From contig NZ_LSUQ01000002.1 in NCBI RefSeq assembly GCF_001642725.1, positions 115,525 to 135,524 on the forward strand: a stretch of 20,000 nt of DNA. The letters run 5' to 3'. Source of the DNA: Ferroacidibacillus organovorans. GTDB lineage: Bacteria > Bacillota > Bacilli > Alicyclobacillales > SLC66. Each line of letters begins with the position of its first letter. Position 1 is the stretch's first letter. The notes below the pieces were generated by a model. That model was given only the letters and a program-made list of their open reading frames with translations, did not search any database and was not told the origin of the DNA. The translations under genes were made by a program, and so were the position numbers. Below, in pieces: positions 1,597 through 20,000 of this stretch.

Positions 1597-3081
1597 ATGG
1601 GATCTATGCAACGGTCAACAAGTCCATTGAATCTATCGAATCTCGTAGATCGCAATGCGCATTTTATCGATGGAGAGTGGGTGACGTCGACAAGCGGCGC
1701 GCTCGACGTCATCAACCCCGCAAACGGTGAGATTGTTGGCCGCGTCCCGAACGGGGGCGCGGTGCAAGCCGGAAAAGCGATCGAAGCCGCCTATCGGGCA
1801 CAGCGTGAATGGGCCGCCATGACACCTGCGGAACGGGCAGTCTACATGCATGCCTGGGCCGCGCGTATCCGTGACAACGCTGTCGAACTCGCACGAATTC
1901 TCACAAGTGAGCAGGGCAAACCCCTGTCAGAGTCTCTCGAAGAGGCGGAAGGCGCGGCGCTGTTCATCGAGTGGTATGCGGAGGAAGGCAAGCGAGCTTA
2001 TGGGGAGACCATTCCAGCGCTCGCGCGTAATAAGCGAATTCTCGTGCTTCCGCAGCCCGTCGGCGTCACAGCCCTCATCACGCCGTGGAATTACCCAGGA
2101 ACGATGGTCGCGCGCAAGGGAGCTCCGGCGCTCGCCGCCGGCTGCACTGTCGTATTAAAGCCGGCCAGCCAGACGCCACTTACTGCCGTGGCACTCGTTG
2201 CACTTGCACAGGAGGCCGGCTTTCCTGCAGGGGTCATCAACCTGGTGACGGGAAAATCGAGCGAAATTGGTGAAGAATTTATGACGAACGCGAAGGTGCG
2301 CAAGGTGTCGTTCACGGGATCAACCGAAATCGGCAAGCTGCTCATCCGCTCATCCGCAGAGCAGGTCAAGCGTCTGTCACTTGAACTCGGCGGAAACGCA
2401 CCCTTCATCGTCTTTCCGGATGCCGACCTCGATGCTGCGGTTGCGGCCGCAGTCGGCAACAAGTTTGAAAACTGTGGACAGATGTGCAATGGAATCAATG
2501 TGATATACGTGCACAAGGATGTTGCGCAAAAATTCTCGAGGAAGGTGACGCAGAGAGTTGCTAACCTCAAGGTCGGTAGCGGTCTGGAAGAGGACGTGCA
2601 ACTCGGACCCGTAATTGACCACCGAGCCGTGGCGTTCGTCGACGAATTGGTCCAAGATGCCGTGCAAAAGGGCGCCAAAGTAGAAATCGGAGGCGGCTGT
2701 CTGACCGAAACGCCGTACCAGAAAGGATCGTTTTACGCGCCCACAGTCCTGACTGGCGTGACGACGGAGATGCGGATCGCGCAGGAGGAGGTATTCGGAC
2801 CCGTCGCACCCATCGTCACTTTTTCGTCGGAGGAAGAAGTTCTCGCCATGGCAAATGCCACCCCGTTCGGACTCGCCGCCTATGTGTTCACCAAGGATGT
2901 CCGACGCGTATTCGAAGTATCTGAGCAGCTTGAATTCGGCATGGTCGGCGTCAACAGCGCCTCGCTTAGTGTACCTCAGGCGCCGTTCGGCGGAATCAAG
3001 CAGAGTGGTCAAGGCCGGGAAGGCGGCCATCACGGGCTCGAAGAGTTTATGGAGATTAAGTACATCTCGCTCACACTTTGA
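1597..3081 (+). CDS. NAD(P)-dependent aldehyde dehydrogenase, GabD/SSADH-like
   Basis: ITPWNYP, KPASQTP, SFTGSTEIG, LELGGNAP (catalytic Glu), ENCGQMC (catalytic Cys), EEVFGP, PFGGIKQSG; RBS GAGGAGG. Confidence 0.93.
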   Translation: MGSMQRSTSPLNLSNLVDRNAHFIDGEWVTSTSGALDVINPANGEIVGRVPNGGAVQAGKAIEAAYRAQREWAAMTPAERAVYMHAWAARIRDNAVELARILTSEQGKPLSESLEEAEGAALFIEWYAEEGKRAYGETIPALARNKRILVLPQPVGVTALITPWNYPGTMVARKGAPALAAGCTVVLKPASQTPLTAVALVALAQEAGFPAGVINLVTGKSSEIGEEFMTNAKVRKVSFTGSTEIGKLLIRSSAEQVKRLSLELGGNAPFIVFPDADLDAAVAAAVGNKFENCGQMCNGINVIYVHKDVAQKFSRKVTQRVANLKVGSGLEEDVQLGPVIDHRAVAFVDELVQDAVQKGAKVEIGGGCLTETPYQKGSFYAPTVLTGVTTEMRIAQEEVFGPVAPIVTFSSEEEVLAMANATPFGLAAYVFTKDVRRVFEVSEQLEFGMVGVNSASLSVPQAPFGGIKQSGQGREGGHHGLEEFMEIKYISLTL

Positions 3082-3104
3082 TAAATCGTGAAGGGGACGC
3101 AGCG

Positions 3105-4493
3105 ATGAGAACACAAAACAGCAGGAGCACCACAGCACTCGACCATCTCGTCGAGCAGATCCGCGCGGGCGCGATTGAAACGGTCATCGTCGCCTTCTGC
3201 GACATGCAAGGGAGACTTGTTGGAAAGCGCTTGACCGGGCAGTACACACTCGACCATGTCATTGAGGACGGTATACACTTCTGCGTGTACCTGCTTGGAA
3301 CCGATATGGAGTTGAATACGCCGCCCGGTTTCCCGGACATGGGTTGGGGACAAGGATACGGCGACTGGACCGCACGCCCGGACTGGTCGACGGTACGCAC
3401 GCTTCCGTGGCACGAAAAAACGGCACTTGTTCTATCAGACGTGACCGATCACGCAGGTAACCTCATCGCAGTCGCTCCTCGCACTGTTTTGCGGCGGCAA
3501 CTTGAGCGTGCGGCGAATCTCGGCTTCACCGTGAAGATAGCGTCCGAACTCGAATTTTATTTATTGGATGAGTCGTACGACGCGGCGCACGCGAAGAACT
3601 ACCAAAGCCTTGCGCTCGCTGGCACCTATTACGAGGACTATCAGCTTCTGCAGGCATCGCGCAATGAACCATTCTACGCAAAGCTCCGTAAGCAGCTCTC
3701 TTTGGCCGGGATTCCGATTGAAGGTACAAAGGGTGAAGCCGGAGTGGCCCAGCACGAGATCAACGCCTACTATACTGACGCGTTAGAGGCCGCCGATCGA
3801 CATGTACTGCTCAAGCACGGCGCGAAGGAGATCGCGATTCAAAACGGCCGTGCCGTCTCCTTCATGGCTAAACCGGATCACTCGTGGACGGGATCGAGCA
3901 GCCATATCCACTTGAGTCTGTGGGATCAAAAGGACGTCAACGCCTTCTTTGATTCATCGTCCGACCTGCACCAGATGTCGGACATGATGCGTCACTTCCT
4001 CGCCGGCCTGATTGTTCATATTCGCGAACTATCGTTATTGTTCGCACCCTATGTGAATTCGTACAAGCGATTCATGACAGCGAGTTGGGCTCCAACGCAC
4101 ATCGTCTGGGGCGTCGACAACCGCACCTGCGGGCTGCGCGTCGTCGGACACAGCAATGGCAAGCGCATCGAGAACCGCTTCCCGGGCGCGGACACGAACC
4201 CGTATCTCGCTACCGCCGCGATGTTGGTCGCTGGACTCGACGGAATCGAAAACCGAATCGCGTTGCCTCCAGAGTGGGTCGGCAACGGTTATGTGGCGCA
4301 AGATGTCCATGCCGAGTCTCTGCCGACCTCCCTGTACGAGGCCATCCGGGCGTTCGAAACGAGCGAGTTTGCGAAAAATGCACTCGGTGAGAACGTTTAT
4401 CAACACTATCTAAATGCAGCACGCGTGGAACAACGTGCTTACGACCAGGTCGTCACGAACTGGGAGAAACGGCGCTACTTTGAGCGGGTTTAG
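3105..4493 (+). CDS. Glutamine synthetase-like gamma-glutamyl-amine ligase (GlnA4/PuuA type)
   Basis: DMQGRLVGKR, GWGQGYGD, APRTVLRRQL, ELEF, QHEI, FMAKP..TGSSSHIHLSL, NSYKR, WGVDNRT, RIENRFPGADTNPYL. ATG 3105 after AAGGGG preferred over 3078. Recalled resemblance to Streptomyces GlnA4. Confidence 0.9.
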   Translation: MRTQNSRSTTALDHLVEQIRAGAIETVIVAFCDMQGRLVGKRLTGQYTLDHVIEDGIHFCVYLLGTDMELNTPPGFPDMGWGQGYGDWTARPDWSTVRTLPWHEKTALVLSDVTDHAGNLIAVAPRTVLRRQLERAANLGFTVKIASELEFYLLDESYDAAHAKNYQSLALAGTYYEDYQLLQASRNEPFYAKLRKQLSLAGIPIEGTKGEAGVAQHEINAYYTDALEAADRHVLLKHGAKEIAIQNGRAVSFMAKPDHSWTGSSSHIHLSLWDQKDVNAFFDSSSDLHQMSDMMRHFLAGLIVHIRELSLLFAPYVNSYKRFMTASWAPTHIVWGVDNRTCGLRVVGHSNGKRIENRFPGADTNPYLATAAMLVAGLDGIENRIALPPEWVGNGYVAQDVHAESLPTSLYEAIRAFETSEFAKNALGENVYQHYLNAARVEQRAYDQVVTNWEKRRYFERV

Positions 4494-4605
4494 TGTGCAG
4501 CAAAGAATATGGATGCGCTTCGACTGATTTGAATAGATGTCTTACAGCCAGCAGGCACTCTGAATTAAGAAGATCCTTTAAACAGAAAAAGGGAGGCAGC
4601 CGAAC

Positions 4606-5373
4606 ATGCGATTGAAAGATAAGGTATGTGTGATCACCGGTGCAGGTGGAGGCATGGGTCTCAAAGCCGCAGAGCGATTCGCCGAGGAAGGGGGCCGGAT
4701 CGCGATCTTCGAGATAAGCGAGGCGATCGGTCAGAAAGCGGAGGAGTCTATCCGCGCGCAGGGCGGCGACGCGAAGTTTTTCGCGTGTGACGTGTCGAAT
4801 GAGGGGAGTGTTAAGGTCGCAGTCGCCGCCGCGGTCGAGACGTTTGGGCGACTGGACGTGCTTTATAACAATGCGGGAATCATGCCAGAAGCGGACCACT
4901 CCGTCCTCGATACGAGCGTCGAAATGTGGGATAAGGTCATGGCTGTCAACGTACGCAGCATCTTCCTGACCTGCAAGTACGTGATCCCGCACATGCTGGA
5001 GAAAAAATCAGGATCAATCATCAACATCGCATCCTTCGTCGCGATGGTCGGTTGCAGCGTGCCGCAAGACGCGTACACAGCATCGAAAGGCGCTGTGATC
5101 TCGCTGACCAAGTCACTCGCTATCCAATTCCGACCGCAGGGTGTGCGTTCGAACGCAATCTGCCCTGGCCCTATCGAGACACCTCTCATGACGGAGTGGC
5201 TGCTAAAGGACGAAGAGGCCAAGCGAATCCGTCTGAACCGCCAGCCAAGCGGGCGCTTTGGCCGACCGGAAGATATCGTCAACTGCGCGCTTTACCTCGC
5301 ATCGGACGAGTCGGATTGGACAAATGGCGCGGTCATGGTCGTCGACGGCGGCATCACGAGCAACTATTTCTAG
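4606..5373 (+). CDS. Classical short-chain dehydrogenase/reductase
   Basis: TGAGGGMG, NNAG, catalytic YTASK, ICPGPIET, VDGG; RBS GGGAGG. Confidence 0.93.
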   Translation: MRLKDKVCVITGAGGGMGLKAAERFAEEGGRIAIFEISEAIGQKAEESIRAQGGDAKFFACDVSNEGSVKVAVAAAVETFGRLDVLYNNAGIMPEADHSVLDTSVEMWDKVMAVNVRSIFLTCKYVIPHMLEKKSGSIINIASFVAMVGCSVPQDAYTASKGAVISLTKSLAIQFRPQGVRSNAICPGPIETPLMTEWLLKDEEAKRIRLNRQPSGRFGRPEDIVNCALYLASDESDWTNGAVMVVDGGITSNYF

Positions 5374-9743: not shown

Positions 9744-10694
<951 letters not shown>

Positions 10695-10765
10695 CTGTCA
10701 TGAAAGAATCGATGAGTGTGGATTATAATCGTAGCAATCAAGAGTTCAGAAATGAGGAGGATTTT

Positions 10766-11683
10766 ATGTCTGAACAAGCAGAAAACCAACAGGATGTCCT
10801 TGCCAAACTCATTGAGCGCCACTCAGAACAGGACGGCGTTCATGAAACGAAAATTCCCTCTCTATTTTTCATTCGTCACTCCTATATAACCGGACCGACT
10901 TATGGAGTTTATAAGCCTTCTTTTTGCATTGTCGTGCAAGGAGCCAAGGAGGTCTTGTTAGGTCAAGAGCGCTTTAAGTATAGCTCTGCTAATTACCTTG
11001 TCGCATCCATGGACCTACCAGTTACCGCTCAGGTCACGGAAGCATCGATCGGATTACCCTATTTAAGTCTTAAACTAGAGTTCACTACGGCTCAAATATT
11101 GGAGGTTCTGAGTGACTCTAAGGTTCACATTGGACCACACAACCATTCGAATCTCGGTATGTTTGTCAGCCAGATGGAGCCTTCGTTGTTAGATGCTGTA
11201 CTAAGGTTAGTACGTTTGTTGGATCATCCAGAGGATATCCCTTTTCTCAGATCGATCATCACAAAAGAAATTCTCTACCGGATTCTACAAGGTGAACACG
11301 GTATTACACTTGAACATATTGCGATGGAGGGAAGTGCCGGTTATCAGATCAGAAATGTAATCGAACACATCGTGAATCATTTGGAGCGGTCTTTTAGGAT
11401 TGAGGAACTCGCGGAAATGGCGAGTATGAGTGTGGCTTCGCTTCATAGGCACTTTAAAGAGGTGACTGCCATGAGTCCAATCCAATTCCAAAAGCAACTA
11501 AGGCTCCAGAAAGCGCGGCGTCTGCTATTTTCCGGGTCGACAGATGCCGCAGATGTCGCCTTCAGAGTTGGCTATGAAAGCCCTTCGCAATTCAGTCGCG
11601 AATATTCTCGCCTGTTTGGATTGCCACCTAGAAAGGATGTAAAACATTTAAGGGAGCGAAATGACCAAACCATAGAAGCCTAA
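10766..11683 (+). CDS. AraC-family regulator (YqhC-like, AraC_N domain)
   Basis: CIVVQGAKEV N-domain; MSVASLHRHFKEVTAMSPIQFQKQLRL, VGYESPSQFSREYSRLFG; ATG 10766 after GAGGAGG. Confidence 0.92.
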   Translation: MSEQAENQQDVLAKLIERHSEQDGVHETKIPSLFFIRHSYITGPTYGVYKPSFCIVVQGAKEVLLGQERFKYSSANYLVASMDLPVTAQVTEASIGLPYLSLKLEFTTAQILEVLSDSKVHIGPHNHSNLGMFVSQMEPSLLDAVLRLVRLLDHPEDIPFLRSIITKEILYRILQGEHGITLEHIAMEGSAGYQIRNVIEHIVNHLERSFRIEELAEMASMSVASLHRHFKEVTAMSPIQFQKQLRLQKARRLLFSGSTDAADVAFRVGYESPSQFSREYSRLFGLPPRKDVKHLRERNDQTIEA

Positions 11684-13926: not shown

Positions 13927-14319
13927 CTATGGTTCGATAAATTCCAAACCGTATTCCAATTGTGCAAATCGAAGTTGTTTATCTCTGGAAACAAAAGAGA
14001 GTTCATTTTCAAGCGCAGTGGCTAAAATTAAAGCATCCGGCGTTTTAATCGACCGACTGTTTGCGCGTTGGCTCAGTTGCAGCTGTGCAGCTCGTTGTGC
14101 CACCTTCGAATCCACAACAAGAATACGTCGTTCAATCAAAAGTCTGTCCGCCCTCAGATGTTCACCGGGTCTTAAATTGTTTCTAATCTCACACTCGGAA
14201 ATGGCCGAAAAGAAGAATGATGCCCCCTCGCCAGTAATCTTCCGAAGGAAGTTGGTGACAGATTCGTCATTCGCTAATAGGTATATTCCGATATTGGAAT
14301 CAAGCAAGTACCCCGGCAA
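13927..14319 (-). CDS. PIN-domain (VapC-like) toxin
   Basis: YLLDSNIGI, SAISECEI, KTPDALILATA, VSRD: conserved PIN acidic residues; TTG start abutting upstream stop. Confidence 0.88.
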   Translation of the reverse strand: MPGYLLDSNIGIYLLANDESVTNFLRKITGEGASFFFSAISECEIRNNLRPGEHLRADRLLIERRILVVDSKVAQRAAQLQLSQRANSRSIKTPDALILATALENELSFVSRDKQLRFAQLEYGLEFIEP

Positions 14320-14550
14320 TCACGCCCACTCCTCTCGGGAGCGACGAATGTTATCGATAGCTTGTGCCGCTTCCTCCGCGGTGAAATCTGGGGGAGCACT
14401 TAAGATCTCTTCCAAGTCTTCAACTGGGTCTAGTTCTATCGTCTCTGATTCAACATCAATCACGATTCGCTTTCGATCAATATGATTCTTCTTTAGAAAG
14501 TCCCGAAGTTTCATGGCTAGTTCCGGATCCAGTTTCTCATTCATCGCCAT
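14320..14550 (-). CDS. Putative antitoxin of the PIN toxin
   Basis: 76 aa, acidic, C-terminus IDNIRRSREEWA; coupled to PIN gene; RBS AAAGGGGTG; upstream extended -10 TGtTATAAT at 14590-14598. Confidence 0.72.
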   Translation of the reverse strand: MAMNEKLDPELAMKLRDFLKKNHIDRKRIVIDVESETIELDPVEDLEEILSAPPDFTAEEAAQAIDNIRRSREEWA

Positions 14551-14988
14551 TTGGAGAAACACCCCTTTCGCCGTTTTCCAAGTCCATTCATTATAACACT
14601 TGACCGTGTAGTTAAAGCCACAGACAGAAGAACTCAATGCTTCCGCTCTGTGTAACCCATTGCTTGGTATCCATTAAGTCGTTTTCGGAAGAACAAGAAA
14701 GAGTCAAAAATCCAAGCAGGGCAAGTATTTCCGGGGATTTTTGGTTTCACTCACAAGGTGACGTAAAACGCATAGAAAAAGACCCAACCTCTTGGCAGTG
14801 TTAAGGTATCCCTGTATTTGCTAACTTGGTTTTGAGCCGCTTCGATTACCTGAGCGTGAGCCACTCTATTCATGTTTTAATCCATATATAGGCGCTATTT
14901 ACATGAAATCGCCATGGGCATGATTCATTGCGAAGGCGCGATCTCCCAGGAATTTTCGCTAGGCAGACAGCCTATCATTCCCATCACT

Positions 14989-15907: not shown

Positions 15908-16111
15908 ATGCATCCGTCGGTCTCTGAACCTCATCAACGCCAAATATCACCGGTCGACTCACGATCAAGTCCTGAATTGGACCTACTACACCATATGGTG
16001 GATGGAATATCAGGCAACAGCAAAATATCTGAGGCGGAAAAAGAGTTAATTCTTCTAGACAATGATAGATGGATTGCACTCGGAATGATCGTCGGTCGTA
16101 AAGGGAAATAA
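15908..16111 (+). pseudogene. Possible truncated gene (3' end of a cassette)
   Basis: 67-aa ORF without clear RBS whose stop lies 35 bp before repeat copy 1, as the RidA stop lies 32 bp before copy 3. Confidence 0.3.
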
Positions 16112-16146
16112 GTGTCCGAAACAACAAGGGGTCAAATTCGACTCCT

Positions 16147-16255
16147 TGTTGCACTATCAGGGTACACATCTGCAGTGGCGGGTGGTACGGTTGTGTTTAA
16201 TTATGCAGTCGGTCATAGTGAAGGTTATTGCGCAACTGGGCAGTTATCATCAATA
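16147..16255 (+). repeat. Tripartite intergenic element, copy 1
   Basis: L TGTTG CACTATCA GGGTAC ACATCTG CAGTG (16147); M GTGTTTAATTATGCA (16193); R TATTG CGCAACT GGGCAG TTATCAT CAATA (16226). Confidence 0.75.
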
Positions 16256-16316
16256 TCTCTCAAGGTAGGCATGTATCATATCTCGGACAAATGGCGAAAA
16301 TAGGCACAAATAATTG

Positions 16317-16345
16317 TGTAACCAAATCCGCTCCCGCTTCGTCTA
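16317..16345 (+). promoter_or_regulatory. Putative ECF-sigma promoter
   Basis: TGTAACC-N16-CGTCTA, 37 bp before the lipoprotein ATG. Confidence 0.5.
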
Positions 16346-16382
16346 TATGGCTGTAAAAGACTTGACAACTGGAGCGATCATC

Positions 16383-17435
16383 ATGAAGAATCGAATTTTA
16401 ATTCTGCCATTGATCATTGTTGCGGGGATAACCCTTACTGCCTGTAGCAACTCATTTGCGGCTGGAGATGCAGGGCAATCTCAGACGTCGGAGGTGACGC
16501 ACGCGGCGGCACCAGCTGTCTCGGCTCCAGCATGGTTCGTACATGACTTGCAACTTGCTGAACAGGCTAATTTGAAGAATGGGTTAAATTACATGCTGAA
16601 TTGGGGCGAAGGTACTGTTACGTCCAACGTCCAAAAACAAATGAATCAACTTTGGTTTGGCGTTTCGACGAACATAAAACAGAACCCTTTATTTGGATAT
16701 TCTTGGTCGATGATGTATCAGATGGTTAAAAGTCAGCCCCAAGCACTGATGTCAGTAAGTGTCTTAGAAAAAGTTGTGCAAGGCGGTAGCACTGCCGGTG
16801 TCCTAGTGTCGGCGAAGAGTATGTCTCTCCCCAACTACGCCTCTATTGCCTTTGCCAATGGGCAAGTTATCACAGCCGCTAACAAATCGGGGGAACTTTT
16901 CTACAGTGTGTATCCTGTAAAAGGTGTGTCGGTTCCATCGACGAATGTATCTGCGAGTTCATCTGCCAAACTGAGCGAATATGGTACACACGACTTTGGG
17001 CTGACTGAAAGGACCTATCCCTCCACCGCTACTGCTTTCAATGCACTAAATCATCTTCAAGACACAAGTATTGGACAGTTCATTCCAACAGGTTCCGATG
17101 TTAGTCTCGGTTCGGGAATTAAAGCGCGACATTCAAACAAAGGTGGATTGAATAGTTATAGCTGGAAGGAAGGGCGGTGGTCAGTTGTTACACAGTTTTG
17201 GGCTAACACTCCAGATGCATTGGGTGTCTCCAGAAACATGGTGAGCTATATGCATTCGCATATGCTTCCTGCTCCGTACAGCAAGGGGTTCATCACCGCT
17301 GTACAGCCGAGGACTTCAAAGCGTTCCAATCATTTAGTTACCATCATTGCATGGCAGGTCGGTAGTCACCTTTATGAGCTGAAGCGGACGGGCAATCCAG
17401 TAACCGCATTAGAAACTGTTTTGACTATGAAGTGA
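16383..17435 (+). CDS. Hypothetical lipoprotein
   Basis: MKNR + hydrophobic core + lipobox LTAC; ATG 16383 after GGAG. Confidence 0.8.
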   Translation: MKNRILILPLIIVAGITLTACSNSFAAGDAGQSQTSEVTHAAAPAVSAPAWFVHDLQLAEQANLKNGLNYMLNWGEGTVTSNVQKQMNQLWFGVSTNIKQNPLFGYSWSMMYQMVKSQPQALMSVSVLEKVVQGGSTAGVLVSAKSMSLPNYASIAFANGQVITAANKSGELFYSVYPVKGVSVPSTNVSASSSAKLSEYGTHDFGLTERTYPSTATAFNALNHLQDTSIGQFIPTGSDVSLGSGIKARHSNKGGLNSYSWKEGRWSVVTQFWANTPDALGVSRNMVSYMHSHMLPAPYSKGFITAVQPRTSKRSNHLVTIIAWQVGSHLYELKRTGNPVTALETVLTMK

Positions 17436-17510
17436 ACACAGATGTACCAACAAAAGCGAGTGGACTGCGAAAGGCAAACAAGGAGTTGAAATGCTCATTG
17501 CGGGTATCTC

Positions 17511-17622
17511 TTCTTCAGGTAAAGGATGCAAGTGTGCAATAGCCGTCGCATAGGCACTAGTGTATGATTATACATGGGATTCGACCAAGCGATCTTGCGT
17601 ATGCTGGCAGTTTAGTTTAGCA
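17511..17622 (+). repeat. Tripartite intergenic element, copy 2
   Basis: L TTCTT CAGGTAAA GGATGC AAGTGTG CAATA (17511); M GTGTATGATTATACA (17560); R TCTTG CGTATGC TGGCAG TTTAGTT TAGCA (17593). Confidence 0.75.
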
Positions 17623-17699
17623 AAGGTTGGTAAATCAGTAAGCGGATGATCAGCATTTTTGCCACACCTTCCATCCGTAACTGAAATAAGGAGGGAATT

Positions 17700-18107
17700 A
17701 TGGAGAGAAACGTTTCATTTATACAATCAGGGAGTCTAGCTTCAGTGGATTACCCATACGCCAGTAGAGTACCCTCGGGAATGGACTTGATTTTCTTAGC
17801 AGGAGCTTGTCCCCTTGATAAAGACGGGAAAGTTCCATTTATCAATAATTATGAGCTTCAGGCCAAGCTTTGCGTAGATAATTTGAAGCAAGCTCTGAAG
17901 GATAGCGGCGCTGCGCTTCGGAATATTGTATATACCAGGGTTATCGTGGCAACTCAAAATTCGACGGATTTGGTAACTGCCTGGAACATGGTAAAGAAGG
18001 AATTTGGAGATCATGATGTGCCAAGCACTTTGTCTGGTGTGACAGTGTTAGGCTATCCAGATCAGCTAGTCGAAATCGAAGCGATTGCCGCAATAGATAC
18101 CGAATGA
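17700..18107 (+). CDS. RidA/YjgF/UK114-family protein
   Basis: IFLAGACPLD, QAKLCVDNL, PSTLSGVTVLGYPDQLVEIEAIA; RBS AAGGAGG. Confidence 0.9.
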   Translation: MERNVSFIQSGSLASVDYPYASRVPSGMDLIFLAGACPLDKDGKVPFINNYELQAKLCVDNLKQALKDSGAALRNIVYTRVIVATQNSTDLVTAWNMVKKEFGDHDVPSTLSGVTVLGYPDQLVEIEAIAAIDTE

Positions 18108-18139
18108 TTAGGTTTGTGAACAACAAGACTTTTGTATCT

Positions 18140-18251
18140 TATTGCACGAAACGGGTGCGAAAATGCAATAGTCAGAGACGATTAACGGGTGTACGATTAT
18201 GCAGAGAGACACCAATGCGATTGTTGCGCATTAGGGCAGGAGAGTACAACA
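18140..18251 (+). repeat. Tripartite intergenic element, copy 3
   Basis: L TATTG CACGAAAC GGGTGC GAAAATG CAATA (18140); M GTGTACGATTATGCA (18189); R TGTTG CGCATTA GGGCAG GAGAGTA CAACA (18222). Confidence 0.8.
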
Positions 18252-18418
18252 GAGTCATAGTATGTAAGTAAGTAAGTAACGTAGATGCTCAACTTTATAG
18301 ATTGATCGGGTATCTTTCAAAGGAGGTCCTTCCAGTGATTATTGCTTGACTCGGAGAGATCATAAGTTGATGATCCCTCCCAAAGGTTGAACCAAGCATA
18401 TCAGGAGGGACAAAATAA

Positions 18419-18952
18419 ATGAGTAATGAAGCTTGTGCTGTTATGGTCATAGACGCGCAAAATGGTTTAGTGAGTACGGTGCGCGATGGCGAAATTGTTT
18501 TGACAAGGATTGCGAACGTGTTGAGAAAAGCACGTCAAAGAAAAGTCCCCATCCTGTTCATTCAACACGATTCGGATGAGGGTAACTTGAAAATCGGAAC
18601 GCCAGGATGGGGACTTCATCCATGCCTTATCCGAACTCAAGATGAAACTGTGATTCACAAGCGAGCATCGGATGCCTTTTATGCAACGGAGCTAGAGGAT
18701 ATTCTAAGGGCGATGGGAATCCAGAGATTGTTTGTTTGCGGCTTTAAGACAGAAATGTGTGTCGATACGACATCTCGACGTGCTACAACGCTCGGATTCG
18801 ATGTGACTCTTATCACAGATGCACATTCTACTACCGACAATGATGTTCTGTCGGCTCAACAGATTACTGATCATCACAACCATACTTTGGATGACTTTGG
18901 CAATGATGCCCACTGGATTGTGACTGCAAGTAGTGACGACGAACTGTTTTGA
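18419..18952 (+). CDS. Isochorismatase-family cysteine hydrolase
   Basis: VIDAQ (Asp), IHKRASDAF (Lys), GFKTEMCVDTT (Cys), DAHST; RBS AGGAGG. Confidence 0.92.
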   Translation: MSNEACAVMVIDAQNGLVSTVRDGEIVLTRIANVLRKARQRKVPILFIQHDSDEGNLKIGTPGWGLHPCLIRTQDETVIHKRASDAFYATELEDILRAMGIQRLFVCGFKTEMCVDTTSRRATTLGFDVTLITDAHSTTDNDVLSAQQITDHHNHTLDDFGNDAHWIVTASSDDELF

Positions 18953-18960
18953 GGATGGGC

Positions 18961-18991
18961 GAAAAGAAGGGGACACCGCCCCCTTCTTTTC
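18961..18991. terminator. Intrinsic, probably bidirectional terminator
   Basis: GAAAAGAAGGGG-7 nt-CCCCTTCTTTTC, 8 bp after the isochorismatase stop. Confidence 0.8.
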
Positions 18992-19341
18992 AAAGTGTTT
19001 ATAAAACTTGGTATCGGTCCCTTACTCAGTAATCGTGGGCGAATGTTCAAGAAAGCCGTGCTGGTGTACTGCCAAATCACCGGTAACCCATTACACGAAG
19101 TCGACTCAAAAGCCTGAAGTTCCAATGACTTCCTTTAGTTTGATTTGCATATCCGGATGATTCACAAAAACCTCGGCCTGTAGACGTGCCGCGCGCTTTA
19201 CTTCGTCACACTCCAACTTAAATAGCGGCTTCGACGATTTACAATATTCCTCCACGTGCTTCAACAGCGGGTTGGGCGTACACGTCTTCGAATCACCATA
19301 TGTCAGCCCTCCATAGGTTCATAGTCATAATGATCGAGTTA

Positions 19342-19379: not shown

Positions 19380-19720
19380 CTAGCTCAGCCGATGCTCCAC
19401 AAAGCTAAACTTACTGTGCTGCAGGTTCACATCATGCGAGAACATCTCTACATATATGCGAACCGTCTCCATACTGCTATGGCCAAGTATCCGCTGAAGA
19501 GAGAAAATGTCTCCACCTGCTAAAATGTAATATTTTCCCATTGTATGTCTGAAAGTATGAGGTGACACACGAACGTTTGCAATCCGCGCCTGTTCCCCAT
19601 ACTGCTTGATGAGCTTTTGTATAGTGCCAATGGCAATGGGCTCATTGTCGATGGTCACAAACAGCGCGTCTGTGGGCGCGTTTCCGCGCTCCTTCATGTA
19701 TTTCTGCAGGACTTGGCCCC
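19380..19720 (-). pseudogene. Tyrosine recombinase/integrase, C-terminal fragment
   Basis: ALFVT, SPHTFRHT (HxxR), LQRILGHSS, TVRIY (catalytic Tyr); N-terminal domains and first catalytic Arg absent. Confidence 0.88.
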
Positions 19721-19797
19721 TATTGCCCAGCACTGCTGCGGACGTGTGTGCCCACACGTCGACGCATAAATCCAGCCAAATCATCACCTATAAAATG

Positions 19798-19839: not shown

Positions 19840-19861
19840 ACTGCGGTGTTTCAGTCTTTTT

Positions 19862-19919
19862 TGGTGTCGAGAGCGGGACTTGAACCCGCACGGGTTACCC
19901 CACACGCCCCTCAAACGTG
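19862..19919 (-). mobile_element. att site: 3' half of tRNA-Leu(GAG)
   Basis: Minus strand CACGT-TTGAGGG-GCGTG anticodon arm, long variable arm, GCGGG-TTCAAGT-CCCGC T arm, TCTCGAC-A-CCA; no D arm or 5' acceptor strand upstream. Confidence 0.88.
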
Positions 19920-20000
19920 AGATTGCGAGAGAAATGTGTTTGATAACTTAATAGTTGACCACGTGGGCGTTCTTTGACAACTGAAAAGTTGACCACCCCA

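Follow-up and report, generated by a model that had tools for sequence, protein, structure and literature searches.

The 20,000 nucleotides analysed here, referred to as the window, are the end of contig C2 (NZ_LSUQ01000002.1, positions 115,525 to 135,524) in the 3.03-Mb, 98-contig genome of Ferroacidibacillus organovorans (G000), a member of the order Alicyclobacillales. Towards the right-hand end of the window, unrelated single genes, all of them on the + strand, are separated by diverged copies of one element of about 110 bp, in which a left site (L) and a right site (R) enclose a box (M). We consider it reasonably probable that these repeats are junction elements in a chromosomal array of gene cassettes, one that is not of the integron type and whose cassettes are moved by a dedicated Xer-like integrase. 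The array and its right-hand border comprise the following features:

15908..16111, + strand: open reading frame (ORF) of 67 aa upstream of element 1, a possible cassette remnant of uncertain status
16144..16255, + strand: junction element 1, with L site 16144-16178 (core GGGTAC 16160-16165), M box 16190-16208 and R site 16224-16255 (core GGGCAG 16238-16243)
16384..17435, + strand: putative cassette gene A, lipoprotein-like ORF with ATG at 16384, then a signal peptide with an LTAC lipobox
17508..17623, + strand: junction element 2, with L core GGATGC 17524-17529, M box 17559-17575 and R core TGGCAG 17605-17610
17700..18107, + strand: putative cassette gene B, RidA / L-PSP family (PF01042, E 3.6e-13)
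18137..18252, + strand: junction element 3, with L core GGGTGC 18153-18158, M box 18187-18204 and R core GGGCAG 18234-18239
18419..18952, + strand: putative cassette gene C, isochorismatase-family hydrolase (PF00857, E 1e-33)
19021..19068, + strand: partial element 4 at the array end, with L site (core GGGCGA 19037-19042) and half an M box 19060-19068
19380..19787, - strand: C-terminal fragment (135 aa) of a tyrosine recombinase (PF00589), an integrative-element remnant given as context only

The presence of three elements separating unrelated, co-oriented single genes had been proposed in a preliminary description of this DNA, made from its letters alone, and direct reading of the sequence bears it out. 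The elements lie on the + strand at 16147, 17511 and 18140, with M boxes starting at 16193, 17560 and 18189 and R dyads at 16226, 17593 and 18222, which reproduces the earlier spacings of 33 nt from M to R in all three copies and of 46, 49 and 49 nt from L to M in copies 1, 2 and 3. In a MAFFT alignment of these copies, the blocks are conserved and the linkers are unrelated. Partial element 4, also read directly, consists of an L site followed only by the first half of the M box, CTGGTGTA. A hidden Markov model (HMM) built from 11 strong copies of the same genome, leaving out those of the window, finds the three elements at 18136-18250 (E 7e-22), 17507-17618 (E 1.2e-14) and 16143-16257 (E 1.5e-11) and nothing elsewhere in the window, and it gives no match at E<=10 in 100 block-shuffled windows (2 Mb).

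As for the genes in between, the ORF list gives gene A a TTG start at 16314, its lipobox having been read from the sequence, and the gene has no Pfam match. The 67-aa ORF matches no Pfam family either and has no homolog among the other array loci. Homologs of gene C (31-51% identity), in turn, adjoin same-strand elements in the arrays of two other genomes: at two loci of G012, with an element on one side within 400 nt, and in G057, with elements on both sides. The G+C content of the array region is about 45%, lower than the roughly 56% of the window's first 7 kb, and ARAGORN called no tRNA in the window.

The anatomy of the element was followed through 86 distinct copies of the family. In the coordinates of the model, the L core GGGTGC occupies positions 14-19 and is followed by TGCAATAG at 25-32; the strongly conserved M box, GGTGTATGATTATACAG, spans 49-65; and the R site consists of a left part, TCTTGCGCATTC, at 83-94, the core GGGCAG at 95-100, and (T)CAAT from 108. 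In L and R, one type of site of about 30 bp is directly repeated, made of a T-rich left arm, CGGG plus 3 nt, and CAAT. The CAAT stands 12 nt past the core in most L sites (70 of 82) and R sites (50 of 52). The L core is 40-41 nt from M in 62 of 83 copies and M is 39-40 nt from the R core in 72 of 82; since both distances are about 40 nt, the M box lies midway between the cores, which are themselves 79-81 nt apart in 60 of 79 copies. The fixed geometry noted in the window is a property of the whole family. The description of L and R as dyads fared less uniformly: they are one site type, directly repeated, and their dyad arms are weak except in the window copies. The best exact pattern caught only 8 of 80 copies and would yield hundreds of chance matches in public collections.

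Some features of the window copies may be recorded next to this anatomy. At window 16124-16150, the sequence CCTTGTT in the left arm of L is complementary to AACAAGG, which lies about 14 nt before it at the 3' end of the preceding unit, and element 3 is preceded by a similar AACAACAAG; such pairing may form a hairpin closing each cassette. Just past element 3, at 18262-18279, lies a 4-nt tandem repeat (GTAA/AGTA) whose length differs between metagenomes, 4 nt being missing in X5 and X6 and 8 nt in X7.

The element is not peculiar to the window. Iterated nhmmer searches of the same genome gave 14 strong and about 15 weaker copies, clustered on contigs C2, C72, C83, C59, C86, C61, C25, C41 and C21, where they occupy tight gaps between co-oriented genes and run almost always on one strand per contig; the sole opposite-strand match is weak (E 0.59) and overlaps element 2 in C2. 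A sequence-only covariance model detected elements in 38 of 61 genomes of the order, which belong to two families and give at most 32 matches each, whereas about 140 genomes of the class outside the order (from a 151-genome class-wide sample) gave one weak match, in G094. Arrays of more than 35 copies occur.

How these arrays are built was surveyed in 42 fetched loci (684 kb, 167 elements). Consecutive elements within 6 kb of each other share a strand in 120 of 120 pairs, and the flanking genes are co-oriented with them upstream in 144 of 164 cases and downstream in 136 of 165. The gap between elements has a median of 903 bp and holds exactly one ORF of at least 60 aa in 71 of 120 cases; the median distance is 44 nt from the upstream stop to the element and 57 nt from the element end to the next ORF start. 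In the complete genome G047, a one-strand array extends over tens of kb, with at least 20 elements in one 20-kb stretch and single genes between them. The cargo in the genome of the window includes GNAT acetyltransferases, glyoxalase, DinB, NUDIX, MFS, metallophosphoesterase, HAD, methyltransferases and a caspase-like protein, and is typical of cassette arrays. Many further copies, placed between co-oriented short variable genes, were what the preliminary description had foreseen.

It had also expected differences between genomes to break at the 6-bp cores. An all-against-all BLAST of the array loci, with shared segments of at least 85% identity and at least 200 bp, gave 225 distinct internal ends, of which 14 (11 at R, 3 at L) fall within 8 nt of a core, against 0.8 expected; among the 22 ends in or near elements, 8 are at model positions 94-99. 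Individual cases locate the breaks to the nucleotide. In G012, a 99.5%-identical cassette is common only from the GGG of an R core to the GGG of an L core, a second cassette (94.8% identity) is common from one R core to the next R core, and a hybrid site, with R-left running into L-right at GGG, is common to two tandem elements. Such a hybrid is the expected leftover if an R core and the L core after it had recombined and excised what lay between them. Contigs C83 and C61 share 1503 bp at 96.8% identity, copies of an integrase module, and diverge right after GGGCAGTT. Two species of the genus differ at an orthologous locus in what lies between two R cores, 1.6 kb in one and 6 kb in the other, with conserved flanks and with the breaks at the R cores. 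Finally, a contig of metagenome run X9, from a relative about 92% identical, has another L-left half and meets the window sequence at 19039, within the GGG of element 4.

These breaks bear on the first rival explanation, in which the element would be an expression adaptor only, providing a hairpin to the upstream gene, a promoter or operator in the M box and a hairpin in the 5' untranslated region of the next gene, the mosaicism arising from ordinary gene flow with joins falling in the motifs by chance. The constant sense orientation, the tight intergenic gaps and the strong conservation of the M box agree with this explanation, and some copies have small sense-strand hairpins with compensatory changes and T-G pairs. 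Nevertheless, a consensus scan called no sigma-70-like promoter (-35/-10 hexamers, 16-18 nt spacing) inside the three window elements, alternative sigma consensus sequences, compared by eye with the M box, did not fit, and Rfam gave no match in the array region at E<=1, with one sub-threshold CRISPR-repeat match elsewhere in the window. A consensus fold of RNA or single-stranded DNA was sought and given up, RNAalifold yielding only a 5-bp palindrome in the M box; fold z-scores are near zero on both strands in 13 of 14 copies, and no fixed-column covariation was found within the element alignment, which accords with the earlier statement that these are not attC sites. The last elements of arrays, moreover, have no co-oriented downstream gene (for example, C72 8269-8375), and the explanation does not account for the GGG breaks in 99%-identical segments, the hybrid site, or the integrase-linked site described below. 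We hold an adaptor alone to be unlikely, although a role in expression may be part of the function of the element.

The enzyme to which the cassette-array reading assigns the movement is a Xer-like tyrosine recombinase of 280 aa, whose gene adjoins the arrays of C83 and C61 in the genome of the window. It carries PF00589 and has the SAM-like N-terminal and catalytic domains of Xer-like simple tyrosine recombinases. It scores below the cut-offs for XerC, XerD, XerA and the integron integrase: 95 and 84 bits on the integron integrase model TIGR02249 (cut-off 265), and, being nearer to XerC, 202-208 bits on that model (cut-off 335). No protein of the genome of the window exceeds the TIGR02249 cut-off. 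Both families contain homologs with 73-96% identity along the full length of the query, besides shorter partial matches of 60-93%, and closely related integrases (76-94% identical) are present in named Alicyclobacillus species. Outside the order, integrases of 44-65% identity exist; in a phylum-wide sample, relatives only 44-49% identical appear in 7 of 400 other genomes. At E<=1e-40, the integrase is matched in 18 of the 61 genomes of the order, and all but one of them (17) also carry elements, in raw genome counts that leave phylogeny aside. The intact recombinase that the preliminary description had called for exists in eight genomes of the order, as 280-aa frames of 85% mean identity in which R137, K161, H227, R230, H253 and Y262 are invariant, but not in the genome of the window, where both copies are pseudogenes (an in-frame stop, a frameshift).

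The integrase gene stands at the head of arrays or inside them, co-directional with the cassettes and with a site at its 3' end. In 11 of the 17 integrase loci, two pairs of which are near-identical, a core site follows the gene in the same orientation, at +52 to +186 nt, and its position weight matrix score is above the 99.9th percentile of 2000 control windows; the G028 locus also has one, 21 nt past the gene. This site is an M-like box plus an R core in family f1, at the G028 locus of f2 and, by eye, in G060, while in three f2 genomes (G047, G043 and G045) a lone site follows a terminator hairpin and the DNA to the right of it differs among the three. In three Alicyclobacillus-like genomes, DNA homology covers just the integrase gene plus about 73 nt, ending at the core, and arrays follow the integrase in G004, G028, G033, G053 and G060. 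The G028 integrase itself (L230, G028:C2:13001-33000, 3905-4885) lacks the usual stop after ...YFVQ and is 326 aa long, spanning the adjacent half-element.

In G036, a different, intact tyrosine recombinase of 328 aa (L069, G036:C1:3176001-3196000, 2528-3514) lies at the start of a small array (2528-4414), where an M+R half-element comes next and then the cassettes. It was considered as a general partner and dropped, since the loci of its homologs have no convincing elements: at 29 loci (closest 38-59% identical), two weak matches, with E 0.003-0.017 and both at one locus, were found within 1.5 kb. The window array has no integrase of the array-associated family, and the fragment at 19380-19787, only 29% identical to that integrase and with an intact homolog in contig C15, is, on its sequence, a recombinase of another type. 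Next to it, 62 nt at 19858-19919 are 100% identical to C15:23220-23281, adjoining an intact 341-aa integrase gene, and contigs C68 and C3 have at their ends the same 67 nt that close the window (19934-20000); these identities and the truncated gene look like the scar of an integrative element. On the other side of the array, in a block of lower G+C, a PIN-domain ORF (130 aa) and the adjoining upstream ORF of 105 aa (13927-14637, - strand) are likely to be a toxin-antitoxin pair.

The layout of the R site raises a second alternative, that the sites resemble dif and are substrates of the host XerC/XerD, like those of Acinetobacter pdif modules or of IMEX elements, making a dedicated recombinase unnecessary. 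Host XerCD comes into consideration because the R site fits an 11+6+11 arrangement, CTTGCGCATTC / GGGCAG / GTAAGTTCAAT, with homology breaking in the 6-bp centre. This is where Xer recombinases exchange strands, according to PMC5357621. Many arrays, in addition, have no recombinase gene nearby, and an element of the IS110 family, a group of insertion sequences (IS), sits at an R core in G047; IS elements that target pdif sites are on record in PMC10132070. Candidate chromosomal dif sites, obtained by searching with a portion of the published B. subtilis dif, read ACGTCCGATAA / TATATA / TTATGTnAAnT and lie mid-chromosome in three complete genomes of the order (G046:C1:2516230, G047:C1:2471620 and G026:C1:1476506; loci L187, L188 and L190); a fourth candidate, in G038, has the same left arm and is near the chromosome end. 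By hand count, the arms of R match these at 3/11 and 7/11 positions and the centre is unrelated, so that mimicry of the host dif was rejected, only the 11-6-11 layout being common. In pdif modules, flanking sites alternate between C/D and D/C, whereas here the orientation is direct throughout (120 of 120 consecutive elements). A distinct integrase is, furthermore, physically linked to the site. Movement by the host Xer proteins seems to us very unlikely.

A third possibility is that another enzyme moves the cassettes, either a large serine recombinase acting at the centre of a dyad of about 35 bp or an IS110- or HUH-type enzyme acting on small hairpins, and what speaks for it is that the breaks are at the geometric centre of each dyad and that candidate enzymes or their elements are found close by. 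Large serine recombinase genes adjoin the arrays of C72 (8724-10217) and C59 (11490-12980) in the genome of the window, and a 497-aa ORF, a possible counterpart, has the same position by the C27 array of G004. In G047, the insertion point of the IS110-family element, which has terminal inverted repeats, falls precisely where R-left (TTATTGCGTTA) meets the R core GGGCAG (L062, G047:C1:3500001-3520000, about 9960-11465, - strand), and further IS110-family genes are present inside the arrays of G047 and G046. A group II intron with a 676-aa reverse transcriptase/maturase ORF (PF00078, PF13655, PF08388) abuts the L core, at model position ~13, in two genomes of different genera (L004, G000 C86, 5209-7505; L044, G012 C69, 11193-13493), the two copies being 89.6% identical. 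Both the IS element and the intron, though, look like parasites of a conserved target; parasites of these two kinds also lodge at attC sites, which group IIC introns are known to target. As to the large serine recombinases, they were discarded as movers, being ubiquitous and uncorrelated with the elements: PF07508 is found in 56 of the 61 genomes, with elements or not, G012 (32 element matches) having three and G027 (16) one, and most arrays have no adjoining gene of this kind. Of such other enzymes as the agents of movement we are highly doubtful.

The contig ends by the arrays of the window genome show one more recurrent feature: the 5' part of a gene with DUF255 and thioredoxin domains is present there in copies that have diverged to 75-95% identity (C72 10921-11131, C86 1-216, C59 10318-10615 and C83 8451-8745; also in C54, C8 and C68). 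The two large serine recombinase genes just mentioned lie near such copies, and serial insertion of elements into one target gene may be the origin of the series.

If the array is a cassette array served by its own integrase, each junction would hold two directly repeated, double-stranded recombination sites of about 30 bp, with cores about 80 bp apart and the M box midway as a putative architectural-protein or accessory site. The 280-aa integrase would cut and exchange strands within a core of 6-7 bp. Because all sites are directly oriented, recombination of an R core with the next L core, or with the next R core, would excise the gene in between as a circle, and the reverse reaction would insert a cassette. 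In this way, small accessory genes, such as those for GNAT, glyoxalase, DinB, NUDIX, RidA and isochorismatase proteins, would be shuffled within and between genomes. The gene-capture and shuffling system on double-stranded sites that the preliminary description put forward thus gains support from the arrays, the breakpoints and the link to the integrase, from which we infer the recombination activity itself.

Several observations weigh against this reading. The remaining 211 of the 225 segment ends lie elsewhere, in IS elements and repeated genes. Runs of reads containing the window stretch come from metagenomes of mine drainage, mine tailings and sediment, and three of the metagenomes (X5-X7) carry the window array in unchanged order; no circle or excision joint was seen in metagenome contigs, which cannot show rare forms, and their only joint, from 19111 to 19325 in X9, is outside the array. 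T-G pairs are tolerated in the small hairpins on the sense strand of L and R, and this could hint at a function as RNA or single strand. With regard to the integrase, the copy of G001 is broken like both copies of the window genome, and some arrays also adjoin large serine recombinase genes; at 6 of the 17 loci, which are not independent of one another, no site within 230 nt scores high. By the same raw count as above, elements are found in 21 of the 43 genomes with no integrase match, among them the element-rich G012 (32 matches), G046 (15, or 23 in a looser search) and G027 (16). Both integrase copies of its genome being pseudogenes, the window array is therefore probably static now, by analogy with the integrase-less attC clusters (CALIN).

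The closest analogue of these arrays is the integron. In both, long co-oriented arrays consist of mostly single-gene cassettes with a repeated recombination element between them, a tyrosine recombinase gene has a primary site beside it, and many arrays have no integrase. The co-oriented, element-bounded cassettes with content variable between genomes that characterize integrons are found here, and so is the primary site by the integrase (at 11 of 17 loci and in G028), although its orientation is unlike that of classical integrons: the integrase is co-directional with the cassettes and has the site at its 3' end. Integrons also carry the same kind of cargo (GNAT, glyoxalase, DinB, NUDIX, isochorismatase), and IS110-family elements and group II introns lodge in their sites. 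The differences concern the two defining components. The enzyme is not IntI by the TIGR02249 cut-off (95 bits against 265), and the sites are not attC sites, which are imperfect folded hairpins with R''/L''/L'/R' boxes, their structure being conserved and not their sequence; here they are conserved in sequence, apparently double-stranded and present twice per junction, with the M box midway. The attC end motif is GTTRRRY/RYYYAAC, and no such ends are visible in the element consensus. The host, moreover, is Gram-positive. This is, then, a cassette-array system of a different make.

Two other systems invite comparison. Acinetobacter pdif modules and further Xer-dependent elements (IMEX) are alike in that genes in varied contexts are flanked by 11-6-11-like tyrosine-recombinase cores, that joins fall at the sites, and that site-targeting IS elements occur; they differ from the present arrays, whose sites are unlike the host dif and directly oriented, and which form chromosomal series of dozens with their own Xer-like integrase. 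In XerS/difSL and XerH/difH, as described in PMC5357621, the gene of a Xer-family recombinase is directly beside its own target site, as it is here. Those, however, are single sites of chromosome-dimer resolution, in contrast to the tens of repeats between variable genes of these arrays.

Taking these comparisons further, we give an even chance to the proposal that Alicyclobacillales carry an independently evolved counterpart of the integron, with a compact Xer-like integrase and its attI-like site, which would gather, store and reshuffle single-gene cassettes into chromosomal arrays of dozens, and with conserved double-stranded twin-core junctions (40+40 bp) whose M box would bind a bending protein that folds the junction into a recombination complex. 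Integrons are the textbook platform of gene capture and, to our knowledge, large surveys have found them essentially missing from Gram-positive bacteria; we found no description of a system like the present one in the full-text literature, subscription journals being outside this coverage. Since close relatives of the integrase are present in named Alicyclobacillus species, the question is open to direct experiment. If the proposal is true, the cassette-array solution would have evolved more than once, here with an integrase of another clade and with sequence-defined, double-stranded sites. It would also open to study the accessory-gene pools of acid-mine and fruit-juice-spoilage Alicyclobacillus, and genetic engineering might gain from it a new site-specific recombinase that is compact and whose site is short and defined by sequence.

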